Notes under the pieces: generated by a model
What the model was told of the DNA's origin: nothing
Database searches by the model: none
The model's input: the letters and a program-made list of their open reading frames with translations, nothing else
Part shown: piece by piece, positions 31,597 through 57,182 of the stretch
Position numbering within the stretch: position 1 is the first letter of the stretch
Layout of the letters: every line of letters starts with the position of its first letter
Position numbers and translations under genes: made by a program
NCBI GenBank assembly: GCA_963769935.1
Contig: CAVYNY010000017.1
Span: 96,001 to 160,000, forward strand
Source of the DNA: an uncultured delta proteobacterium
GTDB lineage: Bacteria > Desulfobacterota > Desulfobacteria > Desulfobacterales > JAFDCJ01
Length of the DNA stretch: 64,000 nt
Direction of reading: 5' to 3'

Positions 31597-31723
31597 TATC
31601 GGATTCTCCTTCGGGGTTAAGCTGCGGCGCTGCTGCGACGGCTTGAAACTATCATAGTTGCTGTTTTCCTACAACAGGTTCGAGGCTTCTCTCCAAATAA
31701 AATGCTGGAATGTTGGATAAATC

Positions 31724-31835
31724 GGTTAGCCCGTTTGCCGGTTAGCCGGTAGGCCGTTAAGCCTATTTATCGGTTAGCCGGCCAACGGCCCAACGGCCCA
31801 ACGGGCTAACCGGCTAACGGGCCCACGGGTCAACC
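31724..31835. repeat. Inverted array of degenerate octamers (CGGTTAGC/GCTAACGG)
   Basis: GGTTAGCCCGTT... on the left and ...AACGGGCTAACC on the right. Confidence 0.75.
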
Positions 31836-31884: not shown

Positions 31885-32048
31885 CTAAGAGCTCACTCAA
31901 AGATAACTTCCCATTTTATACGCCGCTGCATCCCGCCCGGCTGCGTTGCGAAAGCTCGGAATATCCAGATATTCCTGCGTTTTCGCGCCTTGCCGGCCGG
32001 GCGCCGCAACGCCTAAAATTGTGAACTTATTTTTGAGTGAACCCTTAG
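31885..32048. mobile_element. MITE-like element
   Basis: About 35-bp imperfect terminal inverted repeats CTAAGAGCTCACTCAAAGATAACTTCCCATTTTA / TAAAATTGTGAACTTATTTTTGAGTGAACCCTTAG with nested internal stems. Confidence 0.7.
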
Positions 32049-32091
32049 GTTTGCCGCCGTCGTGCTCATAAATAGAATGGATTCCATCATC

Positions 32092-32913
32092 ATGCGAAAA
32101 TTTAGTCCAGCAAGACATATACTGTCGATGTTTCTCGGTTTATTTATAGTGCCGGCTTTTTTCGGCATTGCCTGGGGTCATCATGAAAGCATTCCGTGTG
32201 CGACGTGCCATGATAAGACGGCGGAAGAGCTCAAAGATTATGTCCACGACAGTACTAAATTTCCAATCAGTGCGCGCTGTCTTGCCTGCCATGACGGCAG
32301 CATGGATGTATCCGGACTTAATCCGCCTCATGTTATCAACGGCCGGAAGGAATTGGCCGGCGGTTCTTTTTCGCCCACAATTTTTTCCGACACCGTCGGC
32401 CATAATATTCTATCCATTGATCAGGAACAGGGATTGACCCCCCCGGGCGGCGCTTCCCTGGATGATTTTGGCTGTTTAAGCTGCCATGACGCCCACGACA
32501 ACGGAAATTTTCGCAATCTGAAAAAAAAGATAAATGGATACGCAACCTTGGTCGAGGCGGATGGCGACCCGAATTTTCAACAAAACGTTTACATTTCCGG
32601 AATCAACGATTTTTGCGGGGCGTGTCACGAGCGGTTCAACCGCACCCGCAACAGCCGTGGGGCAAGAGGGTGGCGTCAGCATCCTGTGGGAATTACGATA
32701 TCCGGCTCCCGACATGCCGATTTCAACCACTGGTCCAGCCAGTCCGAGCGCATCACCCAGGCCGAATATCCATCGGGAAATTCCTCTGACCTTTACGGAG
32801 CCCAGTTGATCTGTCTTTCATGCCACCGCGCCCATGCCACACCTTATAATAATGCGCTGCGCTGGGATTACAGCCAAAATTCCCAGGGATGTCTGGAATG
32901 TCACCCCTTTTAA
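32092..32913 (+). CDS. Short OmcS-like hexaheme cytochrome c
   Basis: 6 CxxCH; GGSF, GHNI, PPGG, CLSCHDAH, HPVG and CLSCHRAHA motifs colinear with 40689..41873; start approximate. Confidence 0.8.
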   Translation: MRKFSPARHILSMFLGLFIVPAFFGIAWGHHESIPCATCHDKTAEELKDYVHDSTKFPISARCLACHDGSMDVSGLNPPHVINGRKELAGGSFSPTIFSDTVGHNILSIDQEQGLTPPGGASLDDFGCLSCHDAHDNGNFRNLKKKINGYATLVEADGDPNFQQNVYISGINDFCGACHERFNRTRNSRGARGWRQHPVGITISGSRHADFNHWSSQSERITQAEYPSGNSSDLYGAQLICLSCHRAHATPYNNALRWDYSQNSQGCLECHPF

Positions 32914-32970: not shown

Positions 32971-33906
32971 TTACTCCTTAACGGCAAATACCTGTATGCG
33001 GTTGTTGTTCGTATCGGCAATAAAGATGTTCCCGCTCTTGTTGATGCACAGTTGAGAGGGATAATTTAAAAGACCTTCTTTCCAGCCCATCGCCGACAGT
33101 CGCCCCAGGAAGGATCCATCCGGCCCGAGAATGATGACCCTGCTGCCATTGTGGTCGACCAGATACATATGTCCCCGGTTATCGGTGGTTATGGCGGTCG
33201 GAAACCGCACATATTCCTTCAAGCTTTGGGTCAGCGGAGAAAACTCGGCCGAATCCTTGGCCGCCGAAAATACCTTGGCATTGATGCTATCGATCAAGAA
33301 AACCGTTCCTTTAAAATCCACTGTGAGATCCGAGAGGAAACCGTAGGCTTTCGGGAATTTTTTTTGTGCCAGGTATCGGCCCTCAGAGTTCAACACCAGG
33401 ATGCGCTCGGAAAATATATCTAAAATATAGATGTCGTCATTGCGGTCGATACAGAAACTGCGCGGGACATATGTCGGGGAAGGCAGTCCGGTCGGATTCA
33501 GGTCGCCGATAAATGCGCCGGCCGGGGTCAGGCGCACAATTCGGCGTTTTTTGCGGTCGAGCACGAAAATTTCGCCTTTGGAATTTAGCTGCACCCGGGT
33601 CGGATAGGCCAGCTCGGGCATCTTAATTGCCGGCGAGCCGCCGCTGATGGTTTGATCCCGCAATATATAGCGCAGGAGCCGGCCGTTTCCGGTGTCCGCT
33701 ACAATTACATGGGATTGGTCATCACAGGCAATGCCTTCAGGCTGCTTGAGCGGCGTGCCATCCTGGCCGGCGGTGCTCGTCTGAGCGGCATAAATGGTTG
33801 TGATATAGCTGAACTTCAACACTTCGGTCCCGAAAGATGCGTCTGAAATCAACCCGAAACTCAGCGTGGCGGTTATCAGGACAATCGTTTTGATAAATGC
33901 GCTCAT
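32971..33906 (-). CDS. NHL-repeat beta-propeller, exported
   Basis: PEGIA, VADTGNGR, IADTNNNRIQVF; signal peptide from MSAFIK. Confidence 0.9.
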   Translation of the reverse strand: MSAFIKTIVLITATLSFGLISDASFGTEVLKFSYITTIYAAQTSTAGQDGTPLKQPEGIACDDQSHVIVADTGNGRLLRYILRDQTISGGSPAIKMPELAYPTRVQLNSKGEIFVLDRKKRRIVRLTPAGAFIGDLNPTGLPSPTYVPRSFCIDRNDDIYILDIFSERILVLNSEGRYLAQKKFPKAYGFLSDLTVDFKGTVFLIDSINAKVFSAAKDSAEFSPLTQSLKEYVRFPTAITTDNRGHMYLVDHNGSRVIILGPDGSFLGRLSAMGWKEGLLNYPSQLCINKSGNIFIADTNNNRIQVFAVKE

Positions 33907-33919
33907 TGCGGTTGCAGTC

Positions 33920-35239
33920 TCACTTTCTGCGTTCGGGATGGCATTGGATGCACAAGTCATAAGTGGTTTCAAACGGCATCATATTGGGCTTGTTTCCGGT
34001 ACCGCAGGCCTTGTGACAGCTCAGGCATTCTACGGTAAGGTTCTTATCTCTCGGATCAATCACCTTTTCTCCAATCGGGTGGGTGGCATGGGTCTCCCAT
34101 TGATGACATTTACCGCAAATTTTCTCACCGATGGAGAGTTGCGGCGGCATGAGAAGGATATTGTCCGCCGCATGGGGTGCATGACAGGCGGTGCAGTTGC
34201 CCGTTTTTACAGGTTCGCACAAAGTCGTATTTTTGGGATTCTTGATCGACCATTGCTGCAGTCTAACCGTATCTTCATGACATCTGCCGCAGGTTTCGCC
34301 GATGGATTTTTCCAGAAGCTTTTTTTGTTTTGAGCCATGGGGATTGTGGCAGTTCAAACATCCGACTTTGTCCGTCAGCGGCCAGTGCACCCGGCTTTTG
34401 GCGAAAATCGCATCCACCGCATCGCGGTGACATTGCCGGCACAGTTCCGTTCCCTGTTTTTTGGTCCTGGTGGCATTCGGCGAGCCGGCATCGAAATGGC
34501 ATTCGGTGCATTTATTTTCGGCGACCGGAGGATGGACTTGATCGTATAAAATACCGCGGGTATTGGATCCATGCGCGCTGTGGCAGGAGTCGCAGTTCGT
34601 ATCGGCAACAGGGTAGCCCAGGTGTTTGCGTTTAAACGAAAGCTGGTTGGTTTTATGGCATTCCGTGCAGAGGGCCGGAACGACGTTTTTTAACAGATAC
34701 TCCGACCTTGCCGATGCGTGCGGATCGTGGCAGTTGAGGCAGCCTTTGCCCTTCATCAATGGATCGTGTTTGAATCGTACTTCGTTGGTTTGCTTACCGA
34801 CATCCTGGTGGCAATTCACGCACAGCGCATTGCCCGATTTGTTGAGAAGGAAGCTGTTGTCCGACCCGTGGGAATTGTGGCAGGTCTGGCAGTTGCCGTC
34901 AACGACCACCTTATGGATGCTGCGCGCTTTGTCCGGCACGACTTGTTGATGGCAACTGCGGCAAAGCGTATTGACGTCCGAAACTAAAAGATTCTTATGG
35001 CTGGAAGTATGCGGATCATGGCAGGCGGTGCAATCTCCCTTTTTAAGCAGCGGATGCACGGACCGTTGTTTGCTCGTTTTGGCCACGTCCTCGTGGCATT
35101 TCAGGCATTGGGTGCCTTTGGCGCCGGGCTGAAGACTAACCTTATGCTGCGGGTATGCCGGCGCAGCAAAGACCATCGTTAAAATTGTGCCGATTAATAA
35201 AAATCGGGCAGATTTAAGGTTTATAAAGTTTCGTCGCAT
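33920..35239 (-). CDS. 16-heme periplasmic cytochrome c
   Basis: 16 CxxCH counted, paired CxxCHxxH repeats, signal peptide. Confidence 0.9.
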   Translation of the reverse strand: MRRNFINLKSARFLLIGTILTMVFAAPAYPQHKVSLQPGAKGTQCLKCHEDVAKTSKQRSVHPLLKKGDCTACHDPHTSSHKNLLVSDVNTLCRSCHQQVVPDKARSIHKVVVDGNCQTCHNSHGSDNSFLLNKSGNALCVNCHQDVGKQTNEVRFKHDPLMKGKGCLNCHDPHASARSEYLLKNVVPALCTECHKTNQLSFKRKHLGYPVADTNCDSCHSAHGSNTRGILYDQVHPPVAENKCTECHFDAGSPNATRTKKQGTELCRQCHRDAVDAIFAKSRVHWPLTDKVGCLNCHNPHGSKQKKLLEKSIGETCGRCHEDTVRLQQWSIKNPKNTTLCEPVKTGNCTACHAPHAADNILLMPPQLSIGEKICGKCHQWETHATHPIGEKVIDPRDKNLTVECLSCHKACGTGNKPNMMPFETTYDLCIQCHPERRK

Positions 35240-40576: not shown

Positions 40577-40664
40577 TTCCCTCCGAAAAAGGTAAACCCA
40601 TCGAAAGGTGGGGTCACAAAGCCGACGGGTCCTCATTAACGGGGGACGGCCGGGCTGCCGGGAA
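40577..40664 (+). ncRNA. c-di-GMP-I (GEMM-I) riboswitch
   Basis: GGTAAACCCATC-GAAA-GGTGGGGTCACAAAGCC..GGGTCC..GGACGGCCGGGCTGCCG: P2 with GNRA loop, CAAAG junction, P3; 25 nt before the omcS ATG. Confidence 0.9.
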
Positions 40665-40688
40665 GATGAAGATAAGGAGAACAACTGG

Positions 40689-41873
40689 ATGAAAACAATT
40701 AAATTATGCTTAGCCATGATGGCCGCGGTCCTGCTGTCCTTCGGATTAAGTACCGCGGCCCTGGCCTTCCACAACGGCGGCGTGGCGCACTGTGACGGCT
40801 GCCATACCATGCACAACTCGGAAAACGGCCAATCCATCATTGAAGGGGGAGTTGTCGGCGTAACCGGCGACTACCTGACCAAGGGCACCGACCCCGGCTC
40901 CACGTGTTTGACCTGTCACGCGGGAAGCGGCAGCTACCATGTACTCAGCGATGACGGCTCCAACCAGACCCCGGGCGGCGATTTCTACTGGCTGACCAAA
41001 ACTTTCAGCTATCCGGTGCGCAGCAGCACTGTAACCCGCCACGGGTACAACTTCGGGCACACGATCATCGCCGCAGATTTCGGTTTTTTGACTCCGGACC
41101 CCGATCTGGCTCAAGCCCCCGGAGGCACCTTTCCATCGGCACTGTTGACCTGCAGCAGCTGTCATGACCCGCACGGTGTCAAGGTTAACCGGACCGGACC
41201 CATTGCCGGATCAGGCTCCTACGGTAACGCACCTCCGCCCGGCGCGGATCTGGGAAATTATCGGCTTCTGGGCGACATCGGATACCGGCCGGCGAGCGGC
41301 ATCGTGACATTTACAAACTCGCCGCCGATCGCCGCCACCACCTCAATTGCTCCCAATCCAGAGAGCGACAGCAACCACACCGACTACGGCAAGGGCATGT
41401 CCGAATGGTGCTCCAACTGCCACACGGCTTTTTTGGCACCCGGGGGGGCGGGACAGCATAAGCATCCGGCCGGCAATACCTCCGGCCTGGGCGCCGCCGG
41501 CATTTTCAATAACTACAACAGCTATGTCAAGACAGGCGATTTAACGGGAAATGCCGCAACCTCTTACCTGGCGCTGGTGCCTTTTGAAAGGCAGATCTCG
41601 GATTCGACGCTGTTAGATTCGCACAGTACCCAGGGACCGGATGGAAGTTCGAACGTTATGTGCCTGTCGTGCCATCGGGCCCATATTTCGGCTTTTCCGA
41701 ACTCGGGGCGCTGGGATTTCGAAACCGAACTGCTGGTCAATTCCCATCCGCAGGATACCGATACGGGAGCAATTGCCGGGGATCAGCTGGCCAGCTACTA
41801 CGGCCGGGATATTGCGACCGTTTTCGATCCCGAGCAGCGGAGTCTGTGCAACAAATGCCACGTCAAGGACTAA
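40689..41873 (+). CDS. omcS: OmcS-family hexaheme nanowire cytochrome
   Basis: Mature start FHNGGVAHCDGCHTMHNS, TPGGDF, APGGTFP, CSSCHDPHG, GMSEWCSNCH, YNSYVKTGDLTG, CLSCHRAH, C-terminus QRSLCNKCHVKD; closely parallels Geobacter OmcS/OmcT. Confidence 0.93.
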   Translation: MKTIKLCLAMMAAVLLSFGLSTAALAFHNGGVAHCDGCHTMHNSENGQSIIEGGVVGVTGDYLTKGTDPGSTCLTCHAGSGSYHVLSDDGSNQTPGGDFYWLTKTFSYPVRSSTVTRHGYNFGHTIIAADFGFLTPDPDLAQAPGGTFPSALLTCSSCHDPHGVKVNRTGPIAGSGSYGNAPPPGADLGNYRLLGDIGYRPASGIVTFTNSPPIAATTSIAPNPESDSNHTDYGKGMSEWCSNCHTAFLAPGGAGQHKHPAGNTSGLGAAGIFNNYNSYVKTGDLTGNAATSYLALVPFERQISDSTLLDSHSTQGPDGSSNVMCLSCHRAHISAFPNSGRWDFETELLVNSHPQDTDTGAIAGDQLASYYGRDIATVFDPEQRSLCNKCHVKD

Positions 41874-41895: not shown

Positions 41896-41932
41896 AAATG
41901 GCTGGCGGCGCTCTGCCGCCGGCTATTTTTTT
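41896..41932 (+). terminator. Rho-independent terminator after omcS
   Basis: AAATGGCTGGCGGC-GCTCT-GCCGCCGGCTATTTTTTT. Confidence 0.85.
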
Positions 41933-42058
41933 GACTGAATTGGGCATTGACGGTATATTATGATTGATGCTATCCAATCACCGTCGGTATGTAGATATCC
42001 CATTTTTTCAAGGTTGGATTGAAGCCCCCCTTTTCTGCCCCTAAAGGAGGTCAGGCTT

Positions 42059-43489
42059 TTGAAGATGCCGCGGCTGAATCGATATTTTGTTTTTTTGCTG
42101 GCTGTGCTTATCGGCGGCTGTTTTCCCCTCGAACCGGACGTTGACGTTGCCGTCCTTAAAATGCCCCTGGGACAGGATGGCGAAGTGATTTTATACCTGC
42201 AGCAGCTGCCGCCGGAAGCCGACAAGCTTCGCTTTGATATCGACGGGATTTCCGCCGTAAGGGATGACGGCTCGGTGGTGCCCTTATCCCTTTCCCTGAC
42301 CGGCCTGAAAGGCGCAGATCTCGCGGGGCTTCAAAAATTGATGGCAAGCGGGGTTCTGACCCCGGGCCATTACACCGGACTCTCCATCCGGATCAAGCAG
42401 GCCTGGGTCGAGACCGCCGAAGGTGAGGCCGCGCTGAAAGTTCCCGAGGAACCGCTGAGCGTGGCGCATCCCTTCGACGTGGCCCGGGAAAAAGCCTCGG
42501 CCCTGTTTCTGACGCTTAATCCCGGCCGGCAGATTACGGGGGAGAATCGATTTGCGCCTGTTTTCAGCCTGGCGTCAGCCGGCCAATTGCTGATCAATCT
42601 CACCGCTCTCGTCAGCAACCCCGAAACCAATCTCATCACAGTTTTCAACAAAGCGACCATGCAGGTGGCCGATGCGATTGCCGCCGGCCAGGGACCCATG
42701 GCACTGGCCCTCGACCAGCTCCGGGGCCTGGTGTATGCAACGGTTGCGCGGGATGACGCCATTTTGGCGATCGACGTCTTCAAACGGCAGATTATCAACA
42801 GGCTGAAACTCAATTTCAGGGACAATCCGGTCGATTTGGTCCTGACCCCCGACGGCCGGCGGCTGGTGTCGGTTAACCACGACTCCAATACGGTCAGCCT
42901 TATCGATGCCTTCTCGATGACGGAGGAAAGAAGAATCAGGGTCGGTGAGGGGCCGGCCGCTGCGGTTATGGACCCATCGGGTTCAAGGGTCTACATTTTA
43001 AATACGCGCTCGCGATCGATTTCGGTGGTGGATCTGTCCCAAAACACCCTGGTGGTTACGATCGGCGTCGAGGCGTCTCCGCTGAGAGGCACGTTTAATC
43101 GTGAAGGCGATATGCTATTTGTTATCAGCGGCGATTCACCTTACCTCACCGCCATCGATCGATCCCGGCTGGCCGTCACTGGAAAAATTTTTGTGGGGAC
43201 GGGGGCTGTTTCCATAAAGGCCGACAATCAAAGCGGTCTGCTCTATGTCGGCCGCAAGACCGGCGGCGAAATCGCCGTCATCGAACCGTCTTCTTCGATG
43301 TTTGTCGACACATTTCAGGTCGGCGGCAGGCCGGTGTTCCTGGCGATTGACGAGCAGGAGAGATCGCTGTTTGCGGCGCTTTCCGACCGTAAAATCCTTC
43401 AGAAAATCAATCTCATCAGCAAGAAGGTCGTTGCTGAAATAGAAGTGGGGAAGGGGGCTTACGCAATTGTGGTCATGGGCGAGAGGTAG
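42059..43489 (+). CDS. Lipoprotein with beta-sandwich N-domain and YVTN/YncE beta-propeller
   Basis: Lipobox IGGC; repeats VSVNHDSNTVSLID, RIRVGEGP, EIEVGKG. Confidence 0.8.
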   Translation: MKMPRLNRYFVFLLAVLIGGCFPLEPDVDVAVLKMPLGQDGEVILYLQQLPPEADKLRFDIDGISAVRDDGSVVPLSLSLTGLKGADLAGLQKLMASGVLTPGHYTGLSIRIKQAWVETAEGEAALKVPEEPLSVAHPFDVAREKASALFLTLNPGRQITGENRFAPVFSLASAGQLLINLTALVSNPETNLITVFNKATMQVADAIAAGQGPMALALDQLRGLVYATVARDDAILAIDVFKRQIINRLKLNFRDNPVDLVLTPDGRRLVSVNHDSNTVSLIDAFSMTEERRIRVGEGPAAAVMDPSGSRVYILNTRSRSISVVDLSQNTLVVTIGVEASPLRGTFNREGDMLFVISGDSPYLTAIDRSRLAVTGKIFVGTGAVSIKADNQSGLLYVGRKTGGEIAVIEPSSSMFVDTFQVGGRPVFLAIDEQERSLFAALSDRKILQKINLISKKVVAEIEVGKGAYAIVVMGER

Positions 43490-43492
43490 GAT

Positions 43493-45688
43493 ATGGGCCG
43501 GACGATTTTCCCTTGTATCTGTCTGATTGCGATTTTCTTTTGGATCCATGCCCAATTGGGTTCAAGCGCCAGGGCCGACAGCGTGGACTTTAATACCGAC
43601 CATCGGTATATCGATTCCAGAGGCACGACCAAATTTAAACTTACCGGGGAAAATCTCGATACCAATTATGAGCAATTTAATCAGCTCTACAATCTTAACC
43701 TTTCAAAAAACATTTATCCTTATCTGCTTTTTAACAGTGGAACCGTATACCAGATAAATTCAACCTCGTCTTCAAGCGGAGACAACAACGTCGATACCGA
43801 GGAGAAGATTCTGACTCCCTTTGCCGAACTGAACCTTACCAATCCGATATACCAGGCCGGCCTTGCCTATCACAAAAGAAGAATCGAGGAAGATGTAACC
43901 GATGTGCCTGATACCCGGGCAGACCGCGATGAAATCACCGGGACGCTGGGGATGAACCCCCCTTCCGACTTGTTTCCGGATTGGAGCCTGCGCTACAGCG
44001 ATATCCACACCTACGACGATCCGGAAACCCAGGATCAGTTTCAGAAGGTGTGGATGCTGGATACCGCCTACACGCCTTTGAGTGGCCTCTTTCTCGACTA
44101 CTCGTACGCGCGCACCGATACCGAAGAAAAACTTCAGAATTTCGATACGGTCGAACAATCGCATCTGGGTACGGCCGAATATTCCCGCAATTTTTTCAAC
44201 CAACGCCTGTCCATGGACACCTCCTATACGGTCAATTACAGCAAATTTGAGTTTTCGAGAGGCAGCGGTACTTCCGAAGTTCCATTGCTGCGGTTTGCCG
44301 GTCTTTCGTCGCTGAGCAATACACCGGACGACGGCCCGGCGATGGGTACCAACCCGGCTTTAATCGACGGCAATCTGACGGCCTCGGCCGGCCTGAATAT
44401 CGGAACCGCCGGCGATCAGAGCCAGCCGGTCAACATGGGGCTCGATTTCGGATTTGCGATCGATGTGGATACCCTCCATGTATGGGTGGATCGCCGTCCG
44501 ACCAGCACGGTTGTCAACTCTTTTTCCTGGAGTGTTTATACCAGTCCGGATAATACGGATTTCAGCACCTGGACCCTGGTTGCAACCGTGTCCCCAGCCA
44601 ATTTCGGGACGCTCGACAATCGCTTCGAGATATCTTTTCCCCGGGTCAATACGCGGTTTATCAAGGTGGTGACGGCCGCGCTGTCTCCTGTTGTTCCCGG
44701 TGCGGGGAGCTTCCCGAATATCTTTGTCACCGAGTTGCAGGCCTTTATCACGACCTCGGGGACATCCTTCAATACCCAAAGCAGCGTCCTGAATCAAAAC
44801 TATAACCTCGGTCTCAGAGGCAAGCTCAGCGCCAGTACCCTGCTTGGCTATAATCTGTTCTATAACCAGCAGGATACAGATCCGGGCAATATCAAACGCA
44901 CGCAATATACCAACGGTCTTTATTTGAATCATACCTTCAACGATACCTTTTCCGCCAACGCCAACGGTCAACGCACCGACATCTCCAATGACGTTGCGAA
45001 TGGAACCGAGGATTCCTACAATTACACGTATGGGACTTCCCTAAGGGCAAATTGGCTGGCCACGTTCAATCAGGCGCTGACGTTCAGCGGGTCATATGAC
45101 AACACCGTTCTGGGATCATCTTCGCAGAACGCCCTGTTCCTGCGCAATAATGCCATTCTTTATCAAGGCTGGAGTGCGTTTTTGGATACCGGCTACACCT
45201 GGGAAGAGCCTGAAATCGGATCCCGCATATCCAGTGTTATTATCAGACAGGGCACAAACCTGCAGCCGAACCAAAAAATCAGCCTTAATCTAAGTTTTTC
45301 GTATAAGCGAACCATGCAATCCGGCGAAGACGTCGGACCCAGCGACGAAACCAGATGGGACATACAGGGATTTTATATACCGTTTCGCAATCTGTCTTTT
45401 TTTGCCAAAGTAAATTCGGTCTACCGGGATGGTTCGACGGACACATTTCAGAATTACACCGTGAACTGGTCGCCTTTTCCGGATGGCGATCTGCAGTTTT
45501 TTTTCGTTTTTAACGAAATCCTGTTGTCTGAAAGCAACCAGGAAGAAAGGGTAGTCGGACCGGGTTTGAAATGGACCATCGGTCCGCACATCTCTTTAGA
45601 TATGTCCTACAATTATACGACCAGCGACAACGATACCGAGAAAATTGAATCAAACGTTTTCAGTGCGGATTTAAGGACCCATTTTTAA
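43493..45688 (+). CDS. Large outer-membrane beta-barrel with inserted discoidin-like domain
   Basis: Signal peptide, alternating Y/N/S-rich beta-strands, C-terminal Phe (DLRTHF); central ALIDG..TRFIKV..VTELQA insert. Confidence 0.75.
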   Translation: MGRTIFPCICLIAIFFWIHAQLGSSARADSVDFNTDHRYIDSRGTTKFKLTGENLDTNYEQFNQLYNLNLSKNIYPYLLFNSGTVYQINSTSSSSGDNNVDTEEKILTPFAELNLTNPIYQAGLAYHKRRIEEDVTDVPDTRADRDEITGTLGMNPPSDLFPDWSLRYSDIHTYDDPETQDQFQKVWMLDTAYTPLSGLFLDYSYARTDTEEKLQNFDTVEQSHLGTAEYSRNFFNQRLSMDTSYTVNYSKFEFSRGSGTSEVPLLRFAGLSSLSNTPDDGPAMGTNPALIDGNLTASAGLNIGTAGDQSQPVNMGLDFGFAIDVDTLHVWVDRRPTSTVVNSFSWSVYTSPDNTDFSTWTLVATVSPANFGTLDNRFEISFPRVNTRFIKVVTAALSPVVPGAGSFPNIFVTELQAFITTSGTSFNTQSSVLNQNYNLGLRGKLSASTLLGYNLFYNQQDTDPGNIKRTQYTNGLYLNHTFNDTFSANANGQRTDISNDVANGTEDSYNYTYGTSLRANWLATFNQALTFSGSYDNTVLGSSSQNALFLRNNAILYQGWSAFLDTGYTWEEPEIGSRISSVIIRQGTNLQPNQKISLNLSFSYKRTMQSGEDVGPSDETRWDIQGFYIPFRNLSFFAKVNSVYRDGSTDTFQNYTVNWSPFPDGDLQFFFVFNEILLSESNQEERVVGPGLKWTIGPHISLDMSYNYTTSDNDTEKIESNVFSADLRTHF

Positions 45689-47712: not shown

Positions 47713-49281
47713 ATGAAGCCCGGTACCCAAAATCCGGTAATAACCCCTTTTCGACCTGAAATGAAAAAATCCTTGCCGTATATTTACGTCCTCGCCTTTT
47801 TTTCAGGTATGTGCATCATGGCCAATGAACTTTGTGCATCCCGACTCGTGGCACCCTATTTCGGTACCTCCTCCTTTGTCTGGACCAACATCATCGGCGT
47901 CATAATGATTGCCCTCTCGGCCGGTTACGTTATCGGCGGGAAGCTCGCCGATCGGAAACCAAGGCTTGGTATCCTGTTGAAGCTGCTCCTGGCTGCTTGT
48001 GTGTTTCTCTTCCTGCTCCCTTTTGTGGTTTACCCCGTTGTCCAGGGGCTCTCATCTTTCTTGGAGAGCTTCAACTCCTCATTTTCGTTCATATTTTTCG
48101 GATCGCTCTTAGCCATAATTTTCCTGTTCTCTCCACCGATCGTGATCTTGGGCATGACCAGTCCTTTCCTTATACGCATTGTTGCCCGGACCGACCACGT
48201 GGGGGGCTCTGTAGGGCGCATTTTCGGCATCTCAACCATCGGGAGCGTCGTTGGAACATTTTTGCCTGTCCTTGTGCTCATTCCGGCCATCGGCACAAGC
48301 AAGACGATCCTGTTCTTTTCCTCAGCCCTCTTCGTCGTCGCCGCTCTGGGTTTCACTGGAAAAACAAGGGCGCTTCTTTCAGTAGCGGCGATCGTGCCGT
48401 TCCTTTTCCCGGTGCCGGACGCGAGGCGAACTCCGGGAAAGATCTACGCGACGGAGTCGTCCTATCAGTATATAGAGGTGTTCGACATAGGCTCTTACCG
48501 TTATCTCGTGTACAACAACGCAGCTGGATTTCAGACGGTCGCCAACAAGAGAAGTCCTCTCACAGGCCTGAACTACTACTACGACTACTATTCTCTCCTC
48601 CCCTTCATTTTTGAGGGCACGCCCAAAAAGGCCCTTATCATAGGCCTGGGGGGCGGCATTATCGCGAACCAGTTGCGCTACTTTCATCCGGAAATCATCG
48701 TAGATGGCGTCGAAATAGACCCGAAGGTCATACAGGTCGCCCGGAAATACTTCGCCCTTAGGTCCGATGCAGATGTATTCAATCAGGACGGACGTATCTT
48801 TGTGACATTGAGCAAAAAAAAATACGACATTGTCATCATCGATGCTTACACACGACAAGTCTACATTCCTTTTCACCTGACAACTGTGGAATTCTTCACG
48901 AAGCTGAAGGATAGACTTTCGGAACAGGGAATTGTCGCAATGAATGTTTCCGCGCCCAGAGAAGACTCGCCGCTCCTGCAGAGCATCATGAACACGCTGC
49001 GGCTTGTGTTCGGTCACGTGTATCTATTCAGAATCCCGATGTCTTACGACAATATCGTGCTCGTCTCAGACAGAAGCTTGGACTTCGGGTTGTTCGGACG
49101 GGCGGCCGGGACCGAACTTCAGGGCATCGCCCAGTTAAGCCGGCCCCTGTTCCGGGAAATCAAAACCAACGGCAAGTACGAACCGCTTACCGACGACCGG
49201 GCTCCCGTCGAACATATGGTGGATTGGGAGATTCTCAAACAGGAAATCAAGGCTGATAAAGCCGGACCCGGTGCCGGCTGA
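47713..49281 (+). CDS. Fused membrane/spermidine synthase-like protein
   Basis: SRLVAPYFGTS, IIGLGGG, VEIDP, DGRIF, IIDAY, LTDDRAPVE; the start may be 47761. Confidence 0.85.
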   Translation: MKPGTQNPVITPFRPEMKKSLPYIYVLAFFSGMCIMANELCASRLVAPYFGTSSFVWTNIIGVIMIALSAGYVIGGKLADRKPRLGILLKLLLAACVFLFLLPFVVYPVVQGLSSFLESFNSSFSFIFFGSLLAIIFLFSPPIVILGMTSPFLIRIVARTDHVGGSVGRIFGISTIGSVVGTFLPVLVLIPAIGTSKTILFFSSALFVVAALGFTGKTRALLSVAAIVPFLFPVPDARRTPGKIYATESSYQYIEVFDIGSYRYLVYNNAAGFQTVANKRSPLTGLNYYYDYYSLLPFIFEGTPKKALIIGLGGGIIANQLRYFHPEIIVDGVEIDPKVIQVARKYFALRSDADVFNQDGRIFVTLSKKKYDIVIIDAYTRQVYIPFHLTTVEFFTKLKDRLSEQGIVAMNVSAPREDSPLLQSIMNTLRLVFGHVYLFRIPMSYDNIVLVSDRSLDFGLFGRAAGTELQGIAQLSRPLFREIKTNGKYEPLTDDRAPVEHMVDWEILKQEIKADKAGPGAG

Positions 49282-49300: not shown

Positions 49301-50689
49301 CTACTCCAGCCCATATTTCTTCACCTGGTAGCGCAGCGTATCGTAGCTGATGTCCAGCAGTTTGGCTGCCAGGGTCTTGTTGTAATTTGATTTTTCGAGC
49401 GCCTGGCGGATGAGGTCCTTTTCCACCTCCTCCAGGGATATACCCGAATCGGGCAATGAAATTTTATCGCCGGTAAGTTGTTTGGTGCTTAAATTGTTGC
49501 CGAAGATCCATTTGGGCATCTGTTCCGGTGCAATAATTTCCGCATCTTCAAGCACGACGAATCGTTCGACCAGATTCTTGAGCTCTCTGACATTGCCCGG
49601 CCAGGCGTAGTTTATCATCAATTCTTCTGCCTGCGGTGTAAAGCCTTTAATTATTTTTTTATTATATTTCTTGGCAAAGTGGCTCAGAAAATAATTGGCC
49701 AGCAAGGGGATATCATCCTGTCTTTTTCTAAGCGGCAGGACGTGCAGATAAAAGGCGGTCAAACGAAAGAACAGGTCTTTGCGGAATTCCCCTTTGCTCA
49801 CCGCTTCGGAGAGGTTGCGATTCGTCGTGGCGATAACCGTCGCCTCCACATCGATTTCCCCTTTGCCGCCGATGCGTCTTATTTTGCGGTCTTCCAAAAC
49901 TCTGAGCAACTTGCTCTGAAGGTCCAATTTCATGTCCCCGATCTCATCGAGCAGGATGGCTCCGCCATTCGCCATTTCAAATAATCCCTTTTTGTCCGAC
50001 TTGGCATCGGTAAACGATCCCTTCTCATAGCCGAACAGCTGACTTTCAAGCAGCGATTCCGGCATGGCGGCACAGTTCACCGAAATAAAGGGTGCATTCC
50101 AGGAGTTGTCCGTATTGAACATTAATTTATGAATTCGTCGGGCGATAAGCTCTTTGCCGGTTCCGCTCTCTCCGGTGACGAGAATGTTGGAGACCCGGGC
50201 CTGGGCAATTTTCTTGATTTTTTCCTCCAGATCCTTGATGATGCCGGACTCTCCGACAATTTCCCTGTCAATGACTTCGGAATAGGCTTTTCTGAGATAG
50301 TCCACCTCCTCTTTGAGATTTTCTTTTTCAATAATGTTGCGGATAACGATTTTGACCTCATCCGTGTTAAACGGTTTGGTCAGGTAGTCGGAGGCGCCGA
50401 GCTTCATTGCTCTGACAGCCGTTTCGGCCGTATCATCCGCGGTGAGCATCACCACGGGGGTCGTCAGTCCATTTTCTTTTATTTCCTTAAGTATATCAAT
50501 TCCGTCACGATCGGGCATTCGGATGTCCATCAGCAGCAGATCCGGATTGCAGGACTTTATTTTATCGATAATGCCGGTGGTTTCAGTCTCGGCAAAAACG
50601 TCGTAGCCTTCCCTCCTCAACGCCTTGGAGAGCACCGTGACGATAAGTTCTTCGTCATCCAGCAAAAATACTTTCCCCTTGCTTTTCAT
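49301..50689 (-). CDS. NtrC-family sigma54-dependent response regulator
   Basis: REC (LDDE, MDIRMP, KPF), GESGTGKE, GSFTDA, WPGNVREL, C-terminal HTH. Confidence 0.95.
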   Translation of the reverse strand: MKSKGKVFLLDDEELIVTVLSKALRREGYDVFAETETTGIIDKIKSCNPDLLLMDIRMPDRDGIDILKEIKENGLTTPVVMLTADDTAETAVRAMKLGASDYLTKPFNTDEVKIVIRNIIEKENLKEEVDYLRKAYSEVIDREIVGESGIIKDLEEKIKKIAQARVSNILVTGESGTGKELIARRIHKLMFNTDNSWNAPFISVNCAAMPESLLESQLFGYEKGSFTDAKSDKKGLFEMANGGAILLDEIGDMKLDLQSKLLRVLEDRKIRRIGGKGEIDVEATVIATTNRNLSEAVSKGEFRKDLFFRLTAFYLHVLPLRKRQDDIPLLANYFLSHFAKKYNKKIIKGFTPQAEELMINYAWPGNVRELKNLVERFVVLEDAEIIAPEQMPKWIFGNNLSTKQLTGDKISLPDSGISLEEVEKDLIRQALEKSNYNKTLAAKLLDISYDTLRYQVKKYGLE

Positions 50690-52896
50690 GCCGTCTGTCC
50701 CTTTATATCCTGCAAAACCTGAAGGGAAACATTGACAACGGTTCCCCGGTTGGGTGTGCTTTCGACATAAATGTCGCCGCCGTGCTCTTCGACGAGCCGC
50801 CGGGTGATCGCCAGCCCCAGGCCGGAGCCCTTGCTTTTGGTTGTGAAAAACGGCTGGAAGATTTGATCCAGCGCTGTCGTTTCAATGCCCTTGCCGGTGT
50901 CGGCAACCGCAATGCGGATGGAATTTAAAGCGGCATCATAGTATGTCTTAACCGCCAGGGCGCCGCCGTCGGACATGGCTTCGATCGCATTGAACATCAG
51001 ATTCAAAAATACCTGCTGCAGCTGCATGGGATCGGCCATGGTTTTGGGGATGTCGGCGCCAAAGTCCTTTAGTACTTTTATCGGACTTGGGGAATTCGAG
51101 GACAATAGGGGGTGCTTCAAGGAAAATGAAATGGTTTTATCAAGCAGATCGTTTATATCCGTAAGCATTAGCTGCAATTGGGGCGGCTTGGCGAAATTCA
51201 GCAGGCTCTTAATCAATAATTCGATGCGTTTAATTTCATCAACGGCTTTGACCACAATCGATCGGTCCTCTTCCGAGATGCAGGGCTCCTGAAGGAGTAC
51301 TTCCACCGATCCCTTGATGCCGGCCAGCGGATTTTTGATTTCATGGGCCAGGCCGGCCGCCCATTCGCCGACCGTTTTCAACTGTTCGGTTCGCTGCAAG
51401 GCTTCCTCCACCCGTTTACGGTCGGTGATATCCCGGATGACATGAATCAATCCGGTAAGTTGGTGATCGCTGTCGAACATAGGCATTGCGCGTATCTCAA
51501 GAAACCGTTCCAGGTGCGGCTCATACATTTCAAAGGAGGCCGGCTTTTCCGTCCGGTAGCATTCACAGCTGGGGCAATCTTCCGGCGGACTTTGCTTGCC
51601 ATGGTAATACTGATAGCATTTTGCTTCGGTATCTTCCAGAAACGGCAGATTCAGGAATTTTTCAGCGGCCTTGTTGGCGCGGATGATTCTGAAATCCCTA
51701 TCATGAATTGTTATCATATCGGTGATGGTATTAAACGTGTCCTCCCATTCCTGCTTGGACTGCAGGACCAATTGCTCCATTTGCCTGCGTACCGAGATAT
51801 CGCGGTCAAACGCCAGGATATATCTGTGACCCATATATTCGACCAGCCCGGCGCTGATTTCTACCGGAAAAATCGTGCCGTCTTTTTTGCGGTGGTCTAA
51901 CTCAGCCTTGATCCATTCACCTTCTAAAATGCGCCGGAACCGTGCCGGGGCAACCTCGGCATCCTCCGGGGCATCGAGATCTTTTATCAGGTTTAGCTTC
52001 AGCATTTCATCGATCGTATAGCCATGCATATCGGCGGCGGCCTGGTTGGCATCCACAATATCGCCGCGGTTTTCGCCTTCGGCTTCGACCATGAAAATGG
52101 CGTCCCCGGCGCTTTCAAAGAGCGTGCGGTATCTTCGTTCGCTTTCCCGGATATTTAAGATGTTTTGCTTCAGGGACTCCGACATGGCATTAAAGGATGT
52201 GGCCACCTCGCCGAACTCATTTTTTAAGCCTTTGATGCGGTAATCCAGATCACCTTCCTGCAATTGACGCGTGGCTTTTAAAAGAACCTTGACCGGTTTG
52301 GTAAACTCGCCGATGACAAAAAAACAAAAGCCGGCCGCAATCAGAAGCGTTATGACCACCAGCGTATTGACAATATGTTCTGACCGGCCGATTGCATTCA
52401 GTGAGGCTTCGGTTTTATCACCCAGCCTGCTGCTGGCTATGTGCACCATGTCGTTGGCCTGCTCCACCAGCGTCTGCGATGTCCGGAACGCCGTGTCGCC
52501 CTCCTGCATCCATTCGGCAAGATTGCCCTTCAGGGTCAGAATCCGGCCGATAGATCCTTTTAACAACTCGACTCCCGAGTTCAATACCTCAAGCCGTTTT
52601 ACCACCTGGGGTCTGTGATGGCAATCAAAGCAGGTGACGGACACGCGCTTCAAATTATTGACGTTGGTCAGAATTTCGTCCGGGCTTTTATCGTAGCGTG
52701 TCCCGATGAGGTAGAGGTCCGACTGCACATTTTTTATCTGGATCAGCAAATGTTCCCGCAGGATTTCAACCTGGTGGAGTTTAATCAGATAGCCGAGCTC
52801 CGAGGTGGCATCCTGGATTGTTGAAACGATATAGACGCCGCCGCTGATCAATATGATGCAGACGAGGCCTAAAGCCATGAATATTTTTTTCTTCAT
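50686..52896 (-). CDS. Sensor histidine kinase with periplasmic CxxCH, HAMP and two PAS domains
   Basis: CFDCHH between two TM helices, AHEIKNPL, PFFTTK, GSGLGL. Confidence 0.92.
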   Translation of the reverse strand: MKKKIFMALGLVCIILISGGVYIVSTIQDATSELGYLIKLHQVEILREHLLIQIKNVQSDLYLIGTRYDKSPDEILTNVNNLKRVSVTCFDCHHRPQVVKRLEVLNSGVELLKGSIGRILTLKGNLAEWMQEGDTAFRTSQTLVEQANDMVHIASSRLGDKTEASLNAIGRSEHIVNTLVVITLLIAAGFCFFVIGEFTKPVKVLLKATRQLQEGDLDYRIKGLKNEFGEVATSFNAMSESLKQNILNIRESERRYRTLFESAGDAIFMVEAEGENRGDIVDANQAAADMHGYTIDEMLKLNLIKDLDAPEDAEVAPARFRRILEGEWIKAELDHRKKDGTIFPVEISAGLVEYMGHRYILAFDRDISVRRQMEQLVLQSKQEWEDTFNTITDMITIHDRDFRIIRANKAAEKFLNLPFLEDTEAKCYQYYHGKQSPPEDCPSCECYRTEKPASFEMYEPHLERFLEIRAMPMFDSDHQLTGLIHVIRDITDRKRVEEALQRTEQLKTVGEWAAGLAHEIKNPLAGIKGSVEVLLQEPCISEEDRSIVVKAVDEIKRIELLIKSLLNFAKPPQLQLMLTDINDLLDKTISFSLKHPLLSSNSPSPIKVLKDFGADIPKTMADPMQLQQVFLNLMFNAIEAMSDGGALAVKTYYDAALNSIRIAVADTGKGIETTALDQIFQPFFTTKSKGSGLGLAITRRLVEEHGGDIYVESTPNRGTVVNVSLQVLQDIKGQTA

Positions 52897-53531: not shown

Positions 53532-55943
53532 CTACTCCTCCTTGACTGTGCGCTGCGCGGGATCATGGAAATACAGGTATTTAAACAATCCGTCGGGACC
53601 GTGGCAGTCCATGCACGGCAAATTACGGGATTGAACCCTGAGAAAACTATTGTCGGCCGACCCCTCTGTCTTGACGCCGGTGCCCTCGGAAGGACTCCCT
53701 GAACTCCACTGATGCGCATTGTGGCAGGAGGGGCAGGAAAGATTGCCGACCGTTATTAACTGGCCGGTGGTCTTGTCAAAAAGTGGGAAGTAGTTGGCCC
53801 GGCCTTTCGTATTGCGGCCGACGTTGGTAATCAGCTTACCCGCCGGGTGAAAGGCAATCGGTGGAATTTTATCAGCGGCCGCGCCATTTCTGGAATGGCA
53901 GGAAATGCACATCATTTCGGCAATGCTGTTGCCTGAGGTTAAATCCCGGGCCCAGAGCCTGATTTTATTGGGGCTGTTGTGAACCAGATGACAGACGCCG
54001 CAGGTGCCCGATTCGAGCGGAGTTTGACCGATTATATTCAGGGCCGACGGTGCCATCGAGACCAGATCATGATCGGTTTTATTGATATACGCCTGCGCAG
54101 CATGGCAGTTTTCGCAAAGCCCGGCTGCGGGTGAATTTTCCAATCTTAAAAAACTGTTTTGTGAGGTCCCCTCGATCTTAATCTGGTTTTTATCAGGTGT
54201 CTGCGACGGCGCCCAGCGATGCGGATCATGGCAGGTGGGACAGGCGATGACACCGTTTGGCGAAATTTTCCCCTTTCCGTCAAATAACGGCAAGGTGGTG
54301 GCGAGCCCTTTTTCAGAAGGTGGCAGGTCGATTGGATGGGAATAATCTTTGATTACTTTTTTGCCTGCCAGGCCGTTGTCGCTATGACAGTCGAGACAAA
54401 GGCCATCGACCGCACTTTTATTTTCCGCGGTTCGTTTCCTGGCCCAGAGAAATGTCTGCTGGGCATTGTGCACCAGGTGGCAGCTGCCGCAGACACCCGA
54501 CTGCAAAGGCGTTTGATTCCGGGTGTTCCTGGCTTCCGGCGCCACCTTGCCCAGATCATGTTTGGAATCGGCAATGTAAAATTTGTCACGGTGGCATTCA
54601 CGGCAGATTTCCGGTGACGGCTGCCTGATAAAGAATTGGCGGATCGGTTTGTTTTCTTTGGCTGCGGCGGCGGCAGGGGCTGCCGCCGACCGATGAGGGT
54701 CATGGCAGGTGGTGCACGTTATGACCCCCTTCTGATCCTGCAATCCGAAATCGTTATAAAGCGGAAGGTCCGGCTTATTTTCAGGCCGAACCGCCAGCGG
54801 ATGCTGGGTGCCGGTTAAACTGGCTTTACCTGCGATATTGCCCTGGCTGTGACAGCTCAGGCACAGTGCTGTGGTAAAATTTTCTCCGCCGGCAAGTTGT
54901 CTGGCCGCCTTGTGGGGCAGATGGCAGGCCGAACAAACGCCGGCCTGAGCTACCGTCTGGCCTTGAAGATTCCTTTCATTCGGCCCTGACAGCTGCAGAT
55001 TGTGGGTGGTATCGGAAATCGACTTTTTGTCCGGGTGACAGTTCAGGCAAAAGGCCGCCTTTTCATCGTTTGTTACCAGCAGGGACGCCTGTTCGGTCTG
55101 GTTTTTATGGACCTTATGGCAGGTCAGGCATATCAACTCTCCGTTGCGGCCTGTTTCGGCACCTTTTTTTATTATCGCTTCAGGTATCGTTGCTTTTACC
55201 GGCTTGACGTTTACGACATGCATGGGTTTTTTTTTGCCGGCCGGAGTCATAGGGTTCTTATCCGGGTGGCATGCCATACAAAGACTGGAATCGCGGCCGC
55301 TTTCAATCAGAAAACTCTCATACTTCGCCCCGTGGGCGGCGTGGCAGGTTTCGCATATCAGTTGATTGGGTTTATCGCCCGCCAACGCATACCCTTCCAT
55401 CAGACGGTGGGGAATTTCCTGCTTGACGGTATCCAACGGGTGATTGTGAAATTTGCTGGCATCAGCCATCTCCGGGTGGCACATGCGGCACATGGCTGAA
55501 TTGCGGTTGGAGGTTCGCATGAAAATCGACTCTTTGTTGCCGGGCCCGCTGGGAACTCCGTGGGCGGTGTGACAGGTGGCACATACCATGTTGCCCTGTT
55601 CGTCCAGCGGAAAAATAGGGGGTATCTTCATGTGCGCGGGCGGCGGCACATTGGTTTTGTGTTGAGCCGTCTGGTAGGCGCGGGCGCGGGAATCCTCGAT
55701 GCTGCCGTCATGACAGGAAAAGCACATTTCAGGCGTGGCAACTACTTTGGCAGCCGTATAATCGACCAGGTCACTCCCCCGGCCCTCTACAAAAAAGGTG
55801 TCAATCCAGCGATAGTGACAGATGGCACATGCCTTGGCTGAATTGGGGTTTTTCGGCGGCGCCACATTCATCTGGGCATCGGACAACTTGAAAAGCAGAA
55901 CCAGCGCAACGCTAAGTAGAATCAGGAAACTTTTTCTTTTCAT
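53532..55943 (-). CDS. 20-heme cytochrome c, exported
   Basis: 20 CxxCH counted; internal three-heme repeats (HDL..GVC..CH..HP). Confidence 0.9.
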   Translation of the reverse strand: MKRKSFLILLSVALVLLFKLSDAQMNVAPPKNPNSAKACAICHYRWIDTFFVEGRGSDLVDYTAAKVVATPEMCFSCHDGSIEDSRARAYQTAQHKTNVPPPAHMKIPPIFPLDEQGNMVCATCHTAHGVPSGPGNKESIFMRTSNRNSAMCRMCHPEMADASKFHNHPLDTVKQEIPHRLMEGYALAGDKPNQLICETCHAAHGAKYESFLIESGRDSSLCMACHPDKNPMTPAGKKKPMHVVNVKPVKATIPEAIIKKGAETGRNGELICLTCHKVHKNQTEQASLLVTNDEKAAFCLNCHPDKKSISDTTHNLQLSGPNERNLQGQTVAQAGVCSACHLPHKAARQLAGGENFTTALCLSCHSQGNIAGKASLTGTQHPLAVRPENKPDLPLYNDFGLQDQKGVITCTTCHDPHRSAAAPAAAAAKENKPIRQFFIRQPSPEICRECHRDKFYIADSKHDLGKVAPEARNTRNQTPLQSGVCGSCHLVHNAQQTFLWARKRTAENKSAVDGLCLDCHSDNGLAGKKVIKDYSHPIDLPPSEKGLATTLPLFDGKGKISPNGVIACPTCHDPHRWAPSQTPDKNQIKIEGTSQNSFLRLENSPAAGLCENCHAAQAYINKTDHDLVSMAPSALNIIGQTPLESGTCGVCHLVHNSPNKIRLWARDLTSGNSIAEMMCISCHSRNGAAADKIPPIAFHPAGKLITNVGRNTKGRANYFPLFDKTTGQLITVGNLSCPSCHNAHQWSSGSPSEGTGVKTEGSADNSFLRVQSRNLPCMDCHGPDGLFKYLYFHDPAQRTVKEE

Positions 55944-56021
55944 CCCTAATTATTCAAATTTGGAAAATCTGGTCCTCTGGGCCAGGCCAGAGTAAACCGG
56001 CTAGGCCGAAGACATATGCCG

Positions 56022-56161
56022 TGGAATGATGGAATATTGGAATGTTGGAATTATGGGTTCTGAAGGATGAAATCTTTTTTCGATACACCTCATAGATCAG
56101 AAACTAAAAACAAGATAAATTCCGTTTTTTAAACCCAATATTCCATTATTCCAGCATTCCA
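56022..56161. repeat. Inverted array of TGGAATRN octamers
   Basis: TGGAATGATGGAATATTGGAATGTTGGAATTATGGG ... CCCAATATTCCATTATTCCAGCATTCCA. Confidence 0.8.
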
Positions 56162-56231
56162 TTGGACGTCTAAAGGAAAACGCCGCCTTTGTGGTGTGAA
56201 ATCAATTCCGGGCCCTCGGGGTTATGATTCC

Positions 56232-57182
56232 CTACTTTGATTCAGCTTCGCCCACCTGGCGGTATACGCCGACCTTGTTGGCAAACATTTCCACCACATA
56301 GAGTCGGTCCTGCCGATCTATGAATAGGCCAACAGGAGTCTTGAATTTTTTTACCTTGCCGGTTGCCGGCTCACCGATAGCGGCGTAAAACTCCCCGGTC
56401 GACGTGAAAATTTGAATGACGCCCATGTAACTGTCACTGACATAGATGCGGTTGTTTTTATCAACGGCGACGCCCTTGGGTCTGAAAAATTCTCCTTTTT
56501 CAACCCCCCATCCGCCGATGAAATTTACAAACAATCCGTCCGGATTCAGCTCCTGAACCCGGGTATTGATCACATCAACGATATAGAGGTATTTTTGTTT
56601 ATCCAGCGCTATCAGAAAAGGATAGCGGAAGGCGCGTTTGTCGGTGCCCGGTGTGCCCCATGAATCAAGCAATTTAAGATTTGAGAGATCGTAGACCAGA
56701 ATGCGATGGTTGTCGTTGTCCACGACATAGCAGCGGTGGCGGGTGTCATCGACGGCCACATCGGTGGGGTCCGCCGGATGTTTCAAAGCCGGAAGTTTAA
56801 TTTGGGCGATAAAGCCGCCGGTGCGATCAAATATCTGCACCCGATGGTTGCCGGAGTCAGCCACATATACCCGGCCTGATTCAGGGATGTCGATGCCCAG
56901 CGGGTATTTGAACTCCCCGTCGCCTGCACCCGCCAGGCCGAAGGAAGAAACCGGCATTCCCCGGGAGCTGTATATCCGGATACGGTTGTTGACGCCGTCA
57001 ACCACATAGATTTGTCCATCTTTTGATACAGCGACCTCGCTGGGCTCCTTTAGCTGATCGGTTATTTCGAATTGAAGCTCCACATTAATTAGACGAATCC
57101 CCAATGCCGGCGTCACCGCCAGCAGCAGGATGACGGCCGACAGCACTAGGTATGAGTAGCTGTGTTTAGGCAAATATAACAT
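56232..57182 (-). CDS. NHL-repeat beta-propeller, exported
   Basis: YVVDGVNNRI, VADSGNHRVQIF, FFRPKGVAVD. Confidence 0.9.
   Translation of the reverse strand: MLYLPKHSYSYLVLSAVILLLAVTPALGIRLINVELQFEITDQLKEPSEVAVSKDGQIYVVDGVNNRIRIYSSRGMPVSSFGLAGAGDGEFKYPLGIDIPESGRVYVADSGNHRVQIFDRTGGFIAQIKLPALKHPADPTDVAVDDTRHRCYVVDNDNHRILVYDLSNLKLLDSWGTPGTDKRAFRYPFLIALDKQKYLYIVDVINTRVQELNPDGLFVNFIGGWGVEKGEFFRPKGVAVDKNNRIYVSDSYMGVIQIFTSTGEFYAAIGEPATGKVKKFKTPVGLFIDRQDRLYVVEMFANKVGVYRQVGEAESK

Follow-up and report, generated by a model that had tools for sequence, protein, structure and literature searches.

An OmcS-family hexaheme cytochrome gene within an osc (oet) cluster of an uncultured, probably sulfate-reducing bacterium

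Genes and features of the locus

The window (the whole stretch of DNA analysed, 64,000 nucleotides) carries a gene for a hexaheme cytochrome of the OmcS family at positions 40689-41873, accompanied by a cluster of putative helper genes. The OmcS reference locus was taken from genome G059, whose OmcS is identical letter for letter to the 6EF8 chain. Identities in the list below refer to the G059 counterparts, and the Osc letters D to H were assigned by gene order.

10129-13146, plus strand: fused membrane/spermidine-synthase-like protein, 48% over 1005 aa to the G059 gene between omcT and oscC
32062-32913, plus strand: small OmcS-like hexaheme, about 246 aa mature, candidate tip or end subunit, with 11 internal histidines and no His16
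32971-33972, minus strand: NHL beta-propeller, last of the eight-gene block, 44% over 307 aa
33920-35260, minus strand: 16-heme cytochrome, OscJ counterpart, 47% over 281 aa
35242-37317, minus strand: 26-heme cytochrome, OscI counterpart, 49% over 678 aa
37347-39083, minus strand: SurA-like peptidyl-prolyl isomerase, OscH position, 37% over 513 aa
39361-40473, plus strand: NHL beta-propeller, counterpart of the gene just upstream of G059 omcS, 36% over 304 aa
40582-40663, plus strand: GEMM-I (c-di-GMP-I-GGC) riboswitch aptamer, 67.3 bits against a gathering score of 59, E 9.3e-14
40689-41873, plus strand: OmcS-family hexaheme cytochrome c, candidate filament subunit, 394 aa (368 mature)
40689-40766, plus strand: predicted signal peptide of 26 aa, judged by eye, ending A-L-A before Phe1 (Phe27 of the precursor aligned to 6EF8 residue 1)
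40812-40814, plus strand: codon of His16 (mature numbering), from the sequence and its alignment to OmcS
41896-41938, plus strand: intrinsic-terminator-like hairpin of 15 pairs and a T run just past the stop, a consensus match only
42059-43489, plus strand: YVTN/YncE beta-propeller, OscD position, 38% over 468 aa
43493-45688, plus strand: 731-aa probable outer-membrane barrel, OscE position, 31% over 686 aa
45883-46476, plus strand: GNA1162/LpoB-like lipoprotein, OscF position, 56% over 164 aa
46448-47584, plus strand: LpoB-like two-domain protein, OscG position, 47% over 336 aa

The open reading frame at 40689-41873 encodes 394 amino acids plus a stop, and its ATG lies 9 nt beyond an AAGGAG sequence (40674-40679). 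A longer reading from a GTG at 40608 was rejected, as it would read through the riboswitch. From Phe27 the mature chain comprises 368 residues compared with 407 in OmcS, and six CxxCH motifs are found in this single, predicted-exported chain beginning with Phe1; the first-pass annotation had put the protein at about 370 mature residues and six hemes, and both figures agree with this. Chance was excluded as the origin of any of the features of this gene.

In three metatranscriptome runs from a single study the gene is covered by contigs of 90-99% likeness that represent several strains. Summed contig depth was 13-211 on the gene, mostly 0-17 on the helper genes and at most 48 in two adjacent bins, and flat at 3-7 in a DNA run; these depths were not counted as evidence, the metatranscriptome runs having been picked using the gene and contigs being unable to rank genes. 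A search of a plasmid collection found no OmcS relative.

The osc (oet) helper cluster

All eight genes located behind oscC in G059 (the block GSU2500-GSU2493) have counterparts within 8 kb at 31-56% identity, as does the NHL gene upstream of omcS. The block is present in two divergent halves, and the same split was observed at loci L001-L004, L006, L007, L010, L022 and L063. The fused spermidine-synthase-like gene at 10129-13146 is displaced by about 27 kb from the omcS-type gene. Among 78 loci, most companions were found in 36-52 within the fetched flanks, and the distal NHL gene in 13. The omcS position, that is an NHL gene, a GEMM-I leader and then the gene, is occupied by 40689-41873, which is the only OmcS-type gene in its own genome (G000).

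The core described in the accessible part of PMC5539420, consisting of a 16-heme and a 26-heme cytochrome, a peptidyl-prolyl isomerase and a six-bladed propeller, is present in the window. Judged from its predicted genes, the locus corresponds to the osc cluster, to that four-gene core and to the oet cassette that PMC10553843 reports from syntrophic sulfate reducers. Roles in folding (OscH), secretion (OscE to OscG) and morphology (OscD) are attributed to Shen 2025 in the available text of PMC13194489. No Pfam or NCBIfam hit was obtained for the protein at 43493-45688; based on the osc literature and a C-terminal Phe it is probably an outer-membrane barrel. The G059 counterpart of the 16-heme cytochrome (L131, G059:C1:2742189-2743529) has 10 CxxCH motifs in frame, and only its first 300 residues align. 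A frameshift of oscJ between strains is mentioned in PMC13194489.

Other cytochrome and regulatory genes are found elsewhere in the window. In the region 7610-13146 a NapC/NirT tetraheme and an octaheme HAO-like cytochrome accompany the displaced fused gene, and a second spermidine-synthase-like gene of 522 aa (47713-49281) follows the osc cluster. A second cytochrome island extends from 53532 to 64000 and beyond the window on the same contig; it includes 20-heme and 5-heme proteins, an NHL propeller, two pairs of a 6-heme protein with a cytochrome b561-type membrane protein, a 3-heme protein and then 7- and 20-heme reading frames, and may represent the point where the same electron path ends at the inner membrane. 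Between the two islands a sigma-54 response regulator and a PAS histidine kinase are encoded on the minus strand (49301-52896), the kinase having one CxxCH in its N-terminal part.

Heme ligands and fold

The sole PDB sequence match of the protein was OmcS (6EF8/6NEF; residues 27-394 against 1-407, E 3.6e-77), with 45.6% identity over 364 aligned columns. At the termini, identity was found at 15 of the N-terminal 18 residues and at 10 of the 13 residues that surround the last motif. An AlphaFold2 model based on a 64-row alignment had a pLDDT of 80.3 and a pTM of 0.84. A Foldseek search with this model gave 11 hits, in which 6EF8 alone was matched (TM 0.84/0.76, E 2.9e-31), and the structural alignment to OmcS (VIA) that had been suggested as a check by the first-pass annotation superposed 352 of the 368 residues with Z 35.7 and rmsd 2.7. 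The N-terminal arm was the least confident part (residues 1-7 with pLDDT below 50, residues 11-40 at about 66). A homodimer prediction with four hemes (score 0.00, mark 0.42) counts neither way.

According to the accessible part of PMC6584659, all 12 axial ligands of OmcS are histidines; a subunit supplies 11 of them itself, and the twelfth, on heme 505, belongs to a neighbouring subunit. A set of 140 homologues was obtained from 157 profile hits after three open-ended sequences and two without the first motif had been skipped and identical sequences collapsed. Eleven OmcS histidines (2, 13, 51, 110, 144, 147, 243, 257, 332, 335 and 404) are invariant in all 140, and this conservation suggests that they are the 11 same-subunit ligands of PMC6584659. 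His63 (55) and His247 (67) of OmcS are unconserved in the set. His16 is retained in 120 of the homologues by position and in 122 by alignment, a pattern that fits its function as the inter-subunit heme ligand, which we take it to have in OmcS. The protein encoded at 40689-41873 possesses the 11 invariant histidines and His16 and so all 12 ligand positions. The earlier description of it as an OmcS homolog with a His16 equivalent is thus borne out by sequence, by the 12 histidines and by fold; the absence of axial histidines, which had been named as grounds for abandoning it, was checked by alignment and every one was found. The interface residues named alongside them were judged at the termini, where 15 of 18 and 10 of 13 positions are identical.

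Twenty of the 140 full-size OmcS-family proteins are without His16 but have all 11 internal histidines, and they are spread over several distinct clades (L013, L024, L025, L030, L032-L034, L039, L041, L042, L047, L060, L100, L101, L112-L114, L116, L123 and L129). Seven of the 20 share a fetched locus with a His16-bearing copy. In the accessible portions of the literature searched, no published treatment of such His16-less paralogues was found.

Position among the OmcS paralogues

Beside the 45.6% identity to OmcS, the protein is 45.5% identical to OscC, 44.9% to OmcT and 43.3% to OmcJ, and these three keep the same histidines as OmcS. The filament hallmarks are therefore necessary and not diagnostic, because OmcT, OmcJ and OscC, which are not known wire-formers, keep them as well. 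Trees were built from subsets of the 140 homologues. In an IQ-TREE phylogeny of 44 rows OmcS, OmcT, OmcJ and OscC were placed in an 18-row clade with support 100/100 that does not contain the 40689-41873 protein, and a FastTree phylogeny of 95 rows likewise placed it outside. Forcing it to group with OmcS was rejected (p-AU 3e-17) in a test under LG+G4 with no mixture model, on an unrooted tree and with the group named after the tree had been seen. One-to-one orthology with OmcS to the exclusion of OmcT, OmcJ and OscC was not found. At its C-terminus the protein has the OmcS/OmcT pattern (QRxLCNKCHxxD) and not that of OscC.

Length of the protein

The first-pass annotation had proposed a compact nanowire variant. 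The 39-residue deficit relative to OmcS consists of ten deletions (43 aa) minus four single insertions. Counted by segment, 13 residues are lost in the stretch from motif 2 to GGDF, 13 from motif 3 to motif 4, 5 from motif 4 to motif 5 and 10 from motif 5 to motif 6, and 2 are gained from GGDF to motif 3. Of the nearest 120 relatives 117 were complete, with mature lengths of 337-382 aa, a median of 368 and none of 400 or more. The core, measured from Phe1 to the His of the last motif, is 365 aa here; in 100 distinct homologues from 78 GTDB loci it ranges from 306 to 454 with a median of 361, and 60 of them are at or below 365. Both sets were gathered with the 40689-41873 protein as query and are biased towards it. 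A less biased set of 150 cluster representatives at 50% identity, 50 of which were incomplete and left out, gave a median of 403, with 13 of the 100 complete ones at or below 365.

Core medians were 360.5 for Desulfobacterales (n=6), 364 for Desulfobulbales (n=9), 359 for Desulfuromonadales (n=9), 334 for FCB-type (n=15), 404 for Geobacterales (n=44) and 442 for Myxococcales (n=5). The 39 Geobacteraceae sequences have cores of 379-421, none as short as 365. Segment lengths vary continuously among the homologue groups, and long loops are concentrated in the OmcS/OmcT/OmcJ/OscC clade. Loop insertions and deletions in the family are expected to be tolerated, according to the available text of PMC12977616. 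The protein is indeed shorter than Geobacter OmcS, but its length is common elsewhere, is typical for homologues from Desulfobacterales, Desulfobulbales and Desulfuromonadales, and lies within the ordinary range of the family. On these comparisons it is on the short side of family diversity, unexceptional and ordinary for its tree neighbourhood, and it does not form a separate class. What it lacks relative to OmcS, 39 residues, is loop sequence; such loops are long chiefly in the clade that contains Geobacter, and their shortness here calls for no special explanation.

Leader riboswitch and terminator

The aptamer at 40582-40663 agrees with the leader of G059 omcS in 67 of 83 aligned bases. 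At 40591, which we take to be specificity position 20 by Vc2 numbering, it has G where the G059 omcS leader has A; the A that defines GEMM-Ib (cGAMP) riboswitches at this position is absent. Folding energy of the leader was not beyond that of shuffled sequences (z -0.36), and the riboswitch call rests on the covariance model. In the accessible parts of the two sources, GEMM-I riboswitches with G20 are of the c-di-GMP type (PMC6140456) and the Geobacter omcST riboswitch senses both cGAMP and c-di-GMP (PMC6456294). On account of G20 at 40591 and these reports the aptamer is therefore predicted to be selective for c-di-GMP, and not to be a cGAMP or dual sensor.

A leader model built from 13 such leaders was searched in 90 sources. 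It gave 22 hits at OmcS loci, which include the 13 used for building and two identical to the letter, and in all 22 the distance to the His2 codon of the following gene, which bears His16, is 94-108 nt. The G059 omcS is among them; omcT, oscC and omcJ are not. The riboswitch lineage travelling with omcS varies at the specificity base, with G20 in 15 hits, A20 in six and C20 in one (L106); the A20 leaders include that of G059 omcS and those of the Desulfuromonadales loci L013 and L033. Its position and its leader link the gene to omcS, although the tree does not.

The host genome (G000) has six more c-di-GMP-I riboswitches (L079-L083 and L085), all with G20 and none preceding an OmcS-type gene. 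It was also searched for Hypr-type cyclases at the position that we take to be the guanine-recognition motif of Hypr-type GGDEF domains. Asp was found there in all seven regex-matched GGDEF domains and in 10 of the best 13 of 16 Pfam GGDEF matches, the rest having Leu, Gln or no match. Ser was found in none of the GGDEF domains examined, which is not proof of its absence from the genome. Terminator-like sites numbered seven in the region compared with 4.5 +/- 2.1 in shuffled sequences, and the one at 41896-41938 has the longest stem.

The small hexaheme at 32062-32913

It is this protein, rather than that of 40689-41873, that is the compact hexaheme of the locus. It is colinear with the OmcS family (hhalign probability 99.1, E 1e-18; 98.3 against OmcS itself), and the counterparts of the 11 internal histidines are at least 90% conserved in 73 aligned relatives. 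A histidine at the His16 site was found in none of 98 six-motif relatives (at least 120 relatives were listed). The predicted structure had a pLDDT of 43.6, and a search of the Atlas returned generic paired-CXXCH clusters alone, with recognition below threshold. The protein may be the Apc2a of PMC10553843, which the accessible part of that source labels a putative filament former.

In all four related genomes tested the small hexaheme and the omcS-type gene are on the same contig, 7-14 kb apart. Of 401 genomes searched in the order, five carry the small hexaheme, four of them together with an OmcS-type gene, and four of the eight OmcS-bearing genomes of the order gave no match to it, a small number of candidates having been scored in each genome. 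None was found in G059. In the locus survey 18 hits to it were cross-hits to OmcS genes, with the exception of L006. Two repeats lie in front of the gene: an intergenic repeat of about 165 bp (31885-32053), with 80 near-full-length hits in the genome and 88-95% identity among the matches listed, and a short GC-rich repeated tract at 31715-31835.

Host and distribution

The host is probably a sulfate reducer of the Desulfobacterales type, because its genome contains dsrA above the cut-off and the nearest named homologues of the 40689-41873 protein are from metagenome-assembled genomes labelled Deltaproteobacteria, Desulfosarcina and Desulfobacteraceae. An OmcS-type gene was detected in two of 22 genomes of the same genus and, with four candidates scored per genome, in eight of 401 genomes of the order including its own. 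The available part of the PMC10553843 supplement gives 2.6% for Desulfobacterales versus 88% for Seep-SRB1a. The gene is rare in the order of its host and therefore singles out a sulfate reducer capable, perhaps, of electron exchange with minerals or partners.

Function of the cytochrome

It is near certain that 40689-41873 encodes a genuine member of the OmcS family, of normal length and in a known cluster. The explanation that we favour, and hold to be reasonably probable, is that the protein forms the shaft of an OmcS-type cytochrome filament, with the adjacent osc (oet) genes providing for its export; polymerisation, secretion route and ligand specificity of this system are what we infer. 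The precursor would be exported and receive six c-type hemes; its folding would be aided by the SurA-like protein, as reported for OscH, and the barrel and the two lipoproteins would secrete or anchor it, as reported for OscE to OscG. Subunits would then stack head to tail, His16 of each binding heme 5 of its neighbour to give an unbroken heme stack, with the 26- and 16-heme proteins linking the wire to the periplasm and c-di-GMP controlling the leader of the gene. A wire is favoured by the gene context, with a single OmcS-type gene, counterparts of the eight helper genes and the GEMM-I leader shared with Geobacter omcS. Against it, the hallmarks do not set wire-formers apart from the paralogues, the protein falls outside the clade of OmcS, and the N-terminal arm is modelled with the least confidence; moreover the OmcE structure of PMC13712944 is described there as the first of a bacterial nanowire from any species but G. 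sulfurreducens.

A non-polymerising or accessory hexaheme similar to OmcT, OmcJ or OscC, serving as a surface or periplasmic carrier handled by the osc proteins, is a less likely identity for the protein, though one to be taken seriously. Its equal identity to all four paralogues and its tree position outside their clade would suit such a carrier, and according to the accessible part of PMC12977616 the osc machinery may have secreted cytochromes before wires arose. Against this, the gene occupies the place of omcS, behind an NHL gene and a riboswitch and ahead of a terminator, its product ends in a C-terminus of the OmcS type, and the genome has no other full-size protein that is a candidate substrate of the helper block. 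Moreover His16, lost in 20 of 140 homologues, is yet kept here and in all 22 riboswitch-led copies. That the shortened loops make a distinct compact nanowire with other properties, such as a thinner sheath and more exposed hemes, is very improbable. The net loss of 39 residues, the mere 13 of 100 cluster representatives as short as this and the lack of any so short among the 39 Geobacteraceae sequences (379-421) would favour it, but the 117 nearest complete homologues (337-382, median 368), the 60 of 100 GTDB-locus cores at or below 365, down to 306, the continuous variation of segment length, the superposition of 352 of 368 residues on OmcS and the expected tolerance of loop indels (PMC12977616, available text) all argue against it.

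A wire of two components, in which 40689-41873 supplies the shaft and the small hexaheme caps the heme-1 end as a tip or initiator, is improbable, though somewhat less so than a distinct compact wire. The accessible part of PMC6584659 describes the hemes of OmcS as stacking in sequence order; a subunit so stacked and without His16 could accept a neighbour's His16 and not donate one, and would therefore fit at the heme-1 end only. Colinearity with OmcS, the conserved internal histidines, the lack of His16 in all 98 relatives, the distance of 7-14 kb in four of four related genomes and the sharing of both genes by four of five carriers in the order are consistent with such a cap. On the other side, no small hexaheme was detected in G059, whose OmcS is a known wire-former; half of the eight OmcS-bearing genomes of the order gave no match, and one genome has the small hexaheme without an OmcS match. 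The gene is moreover transcribed apart from the omcS-type gene and convergent on the helper block, heme 5 of its product could be five-coordinate or take another histidine of its own, and the product may be Apc2a, a putative filament former according to the accessible text of PMC10553843. Were the two-component wire real, a tip with about 120 fewer sheath residues would expose hemes to minerals or partner cells, and the 20 His16-less full-size paralogues among 140 would be independent inventions of the same end-piece. How cytochrome wires begin and terminate and what makes up their tips are described as open questions in the available part of PMC13712944, which knows of no tip candidate in OmcE operons; the His16-less neighbour is a concrete tip candidate for an OmcS system.

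The gene adds a further carrier to a published and widespread cluster. OmcS itself belongs to the long-loop clade, and a single-copy homologue of 368 aa is therefore a clean test of whether wire formation came before the OmcS/OmcT/OmcJ/OscC duplications.

Comparison with known systems

OmcS (GSU2504) of Geobacter sulfurreducens shares motif order, the 12 histidines, fold and termini with the protein encoded at 40689-41873, and the upstream NHL gene, the GEMM-I leader and the helper genes are common to both loci. OmcS is 39 residues longer and has an A20 riboswitch where G20 is found here; it is a known filament-former, and the present gene is single-copy and its product a candidate filament subunit. 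OmcT (GSU2503), OmcJ (GSU0701) and OscC (GSU2501) have the same histidines and 43-46% identity to it, but they possess long loops and have no riboswitch hit directly ahead, and the C-terminus of OscC differs. Compared with the GEMM-I families of Rfam (RF03167, RF01051), the aptamer scored above the gathering threshold. Relative to the osc cluster, copies of omcT and oscC do not occur at the locus in this window and the small His16-less hexaheme is extra. The eight downstream genes, the upstream NHL gene and the core of the osc/oet cluster, as described in the accessible parts of PMC13194489, PMC12977616 and PMC10553843, are all present here.
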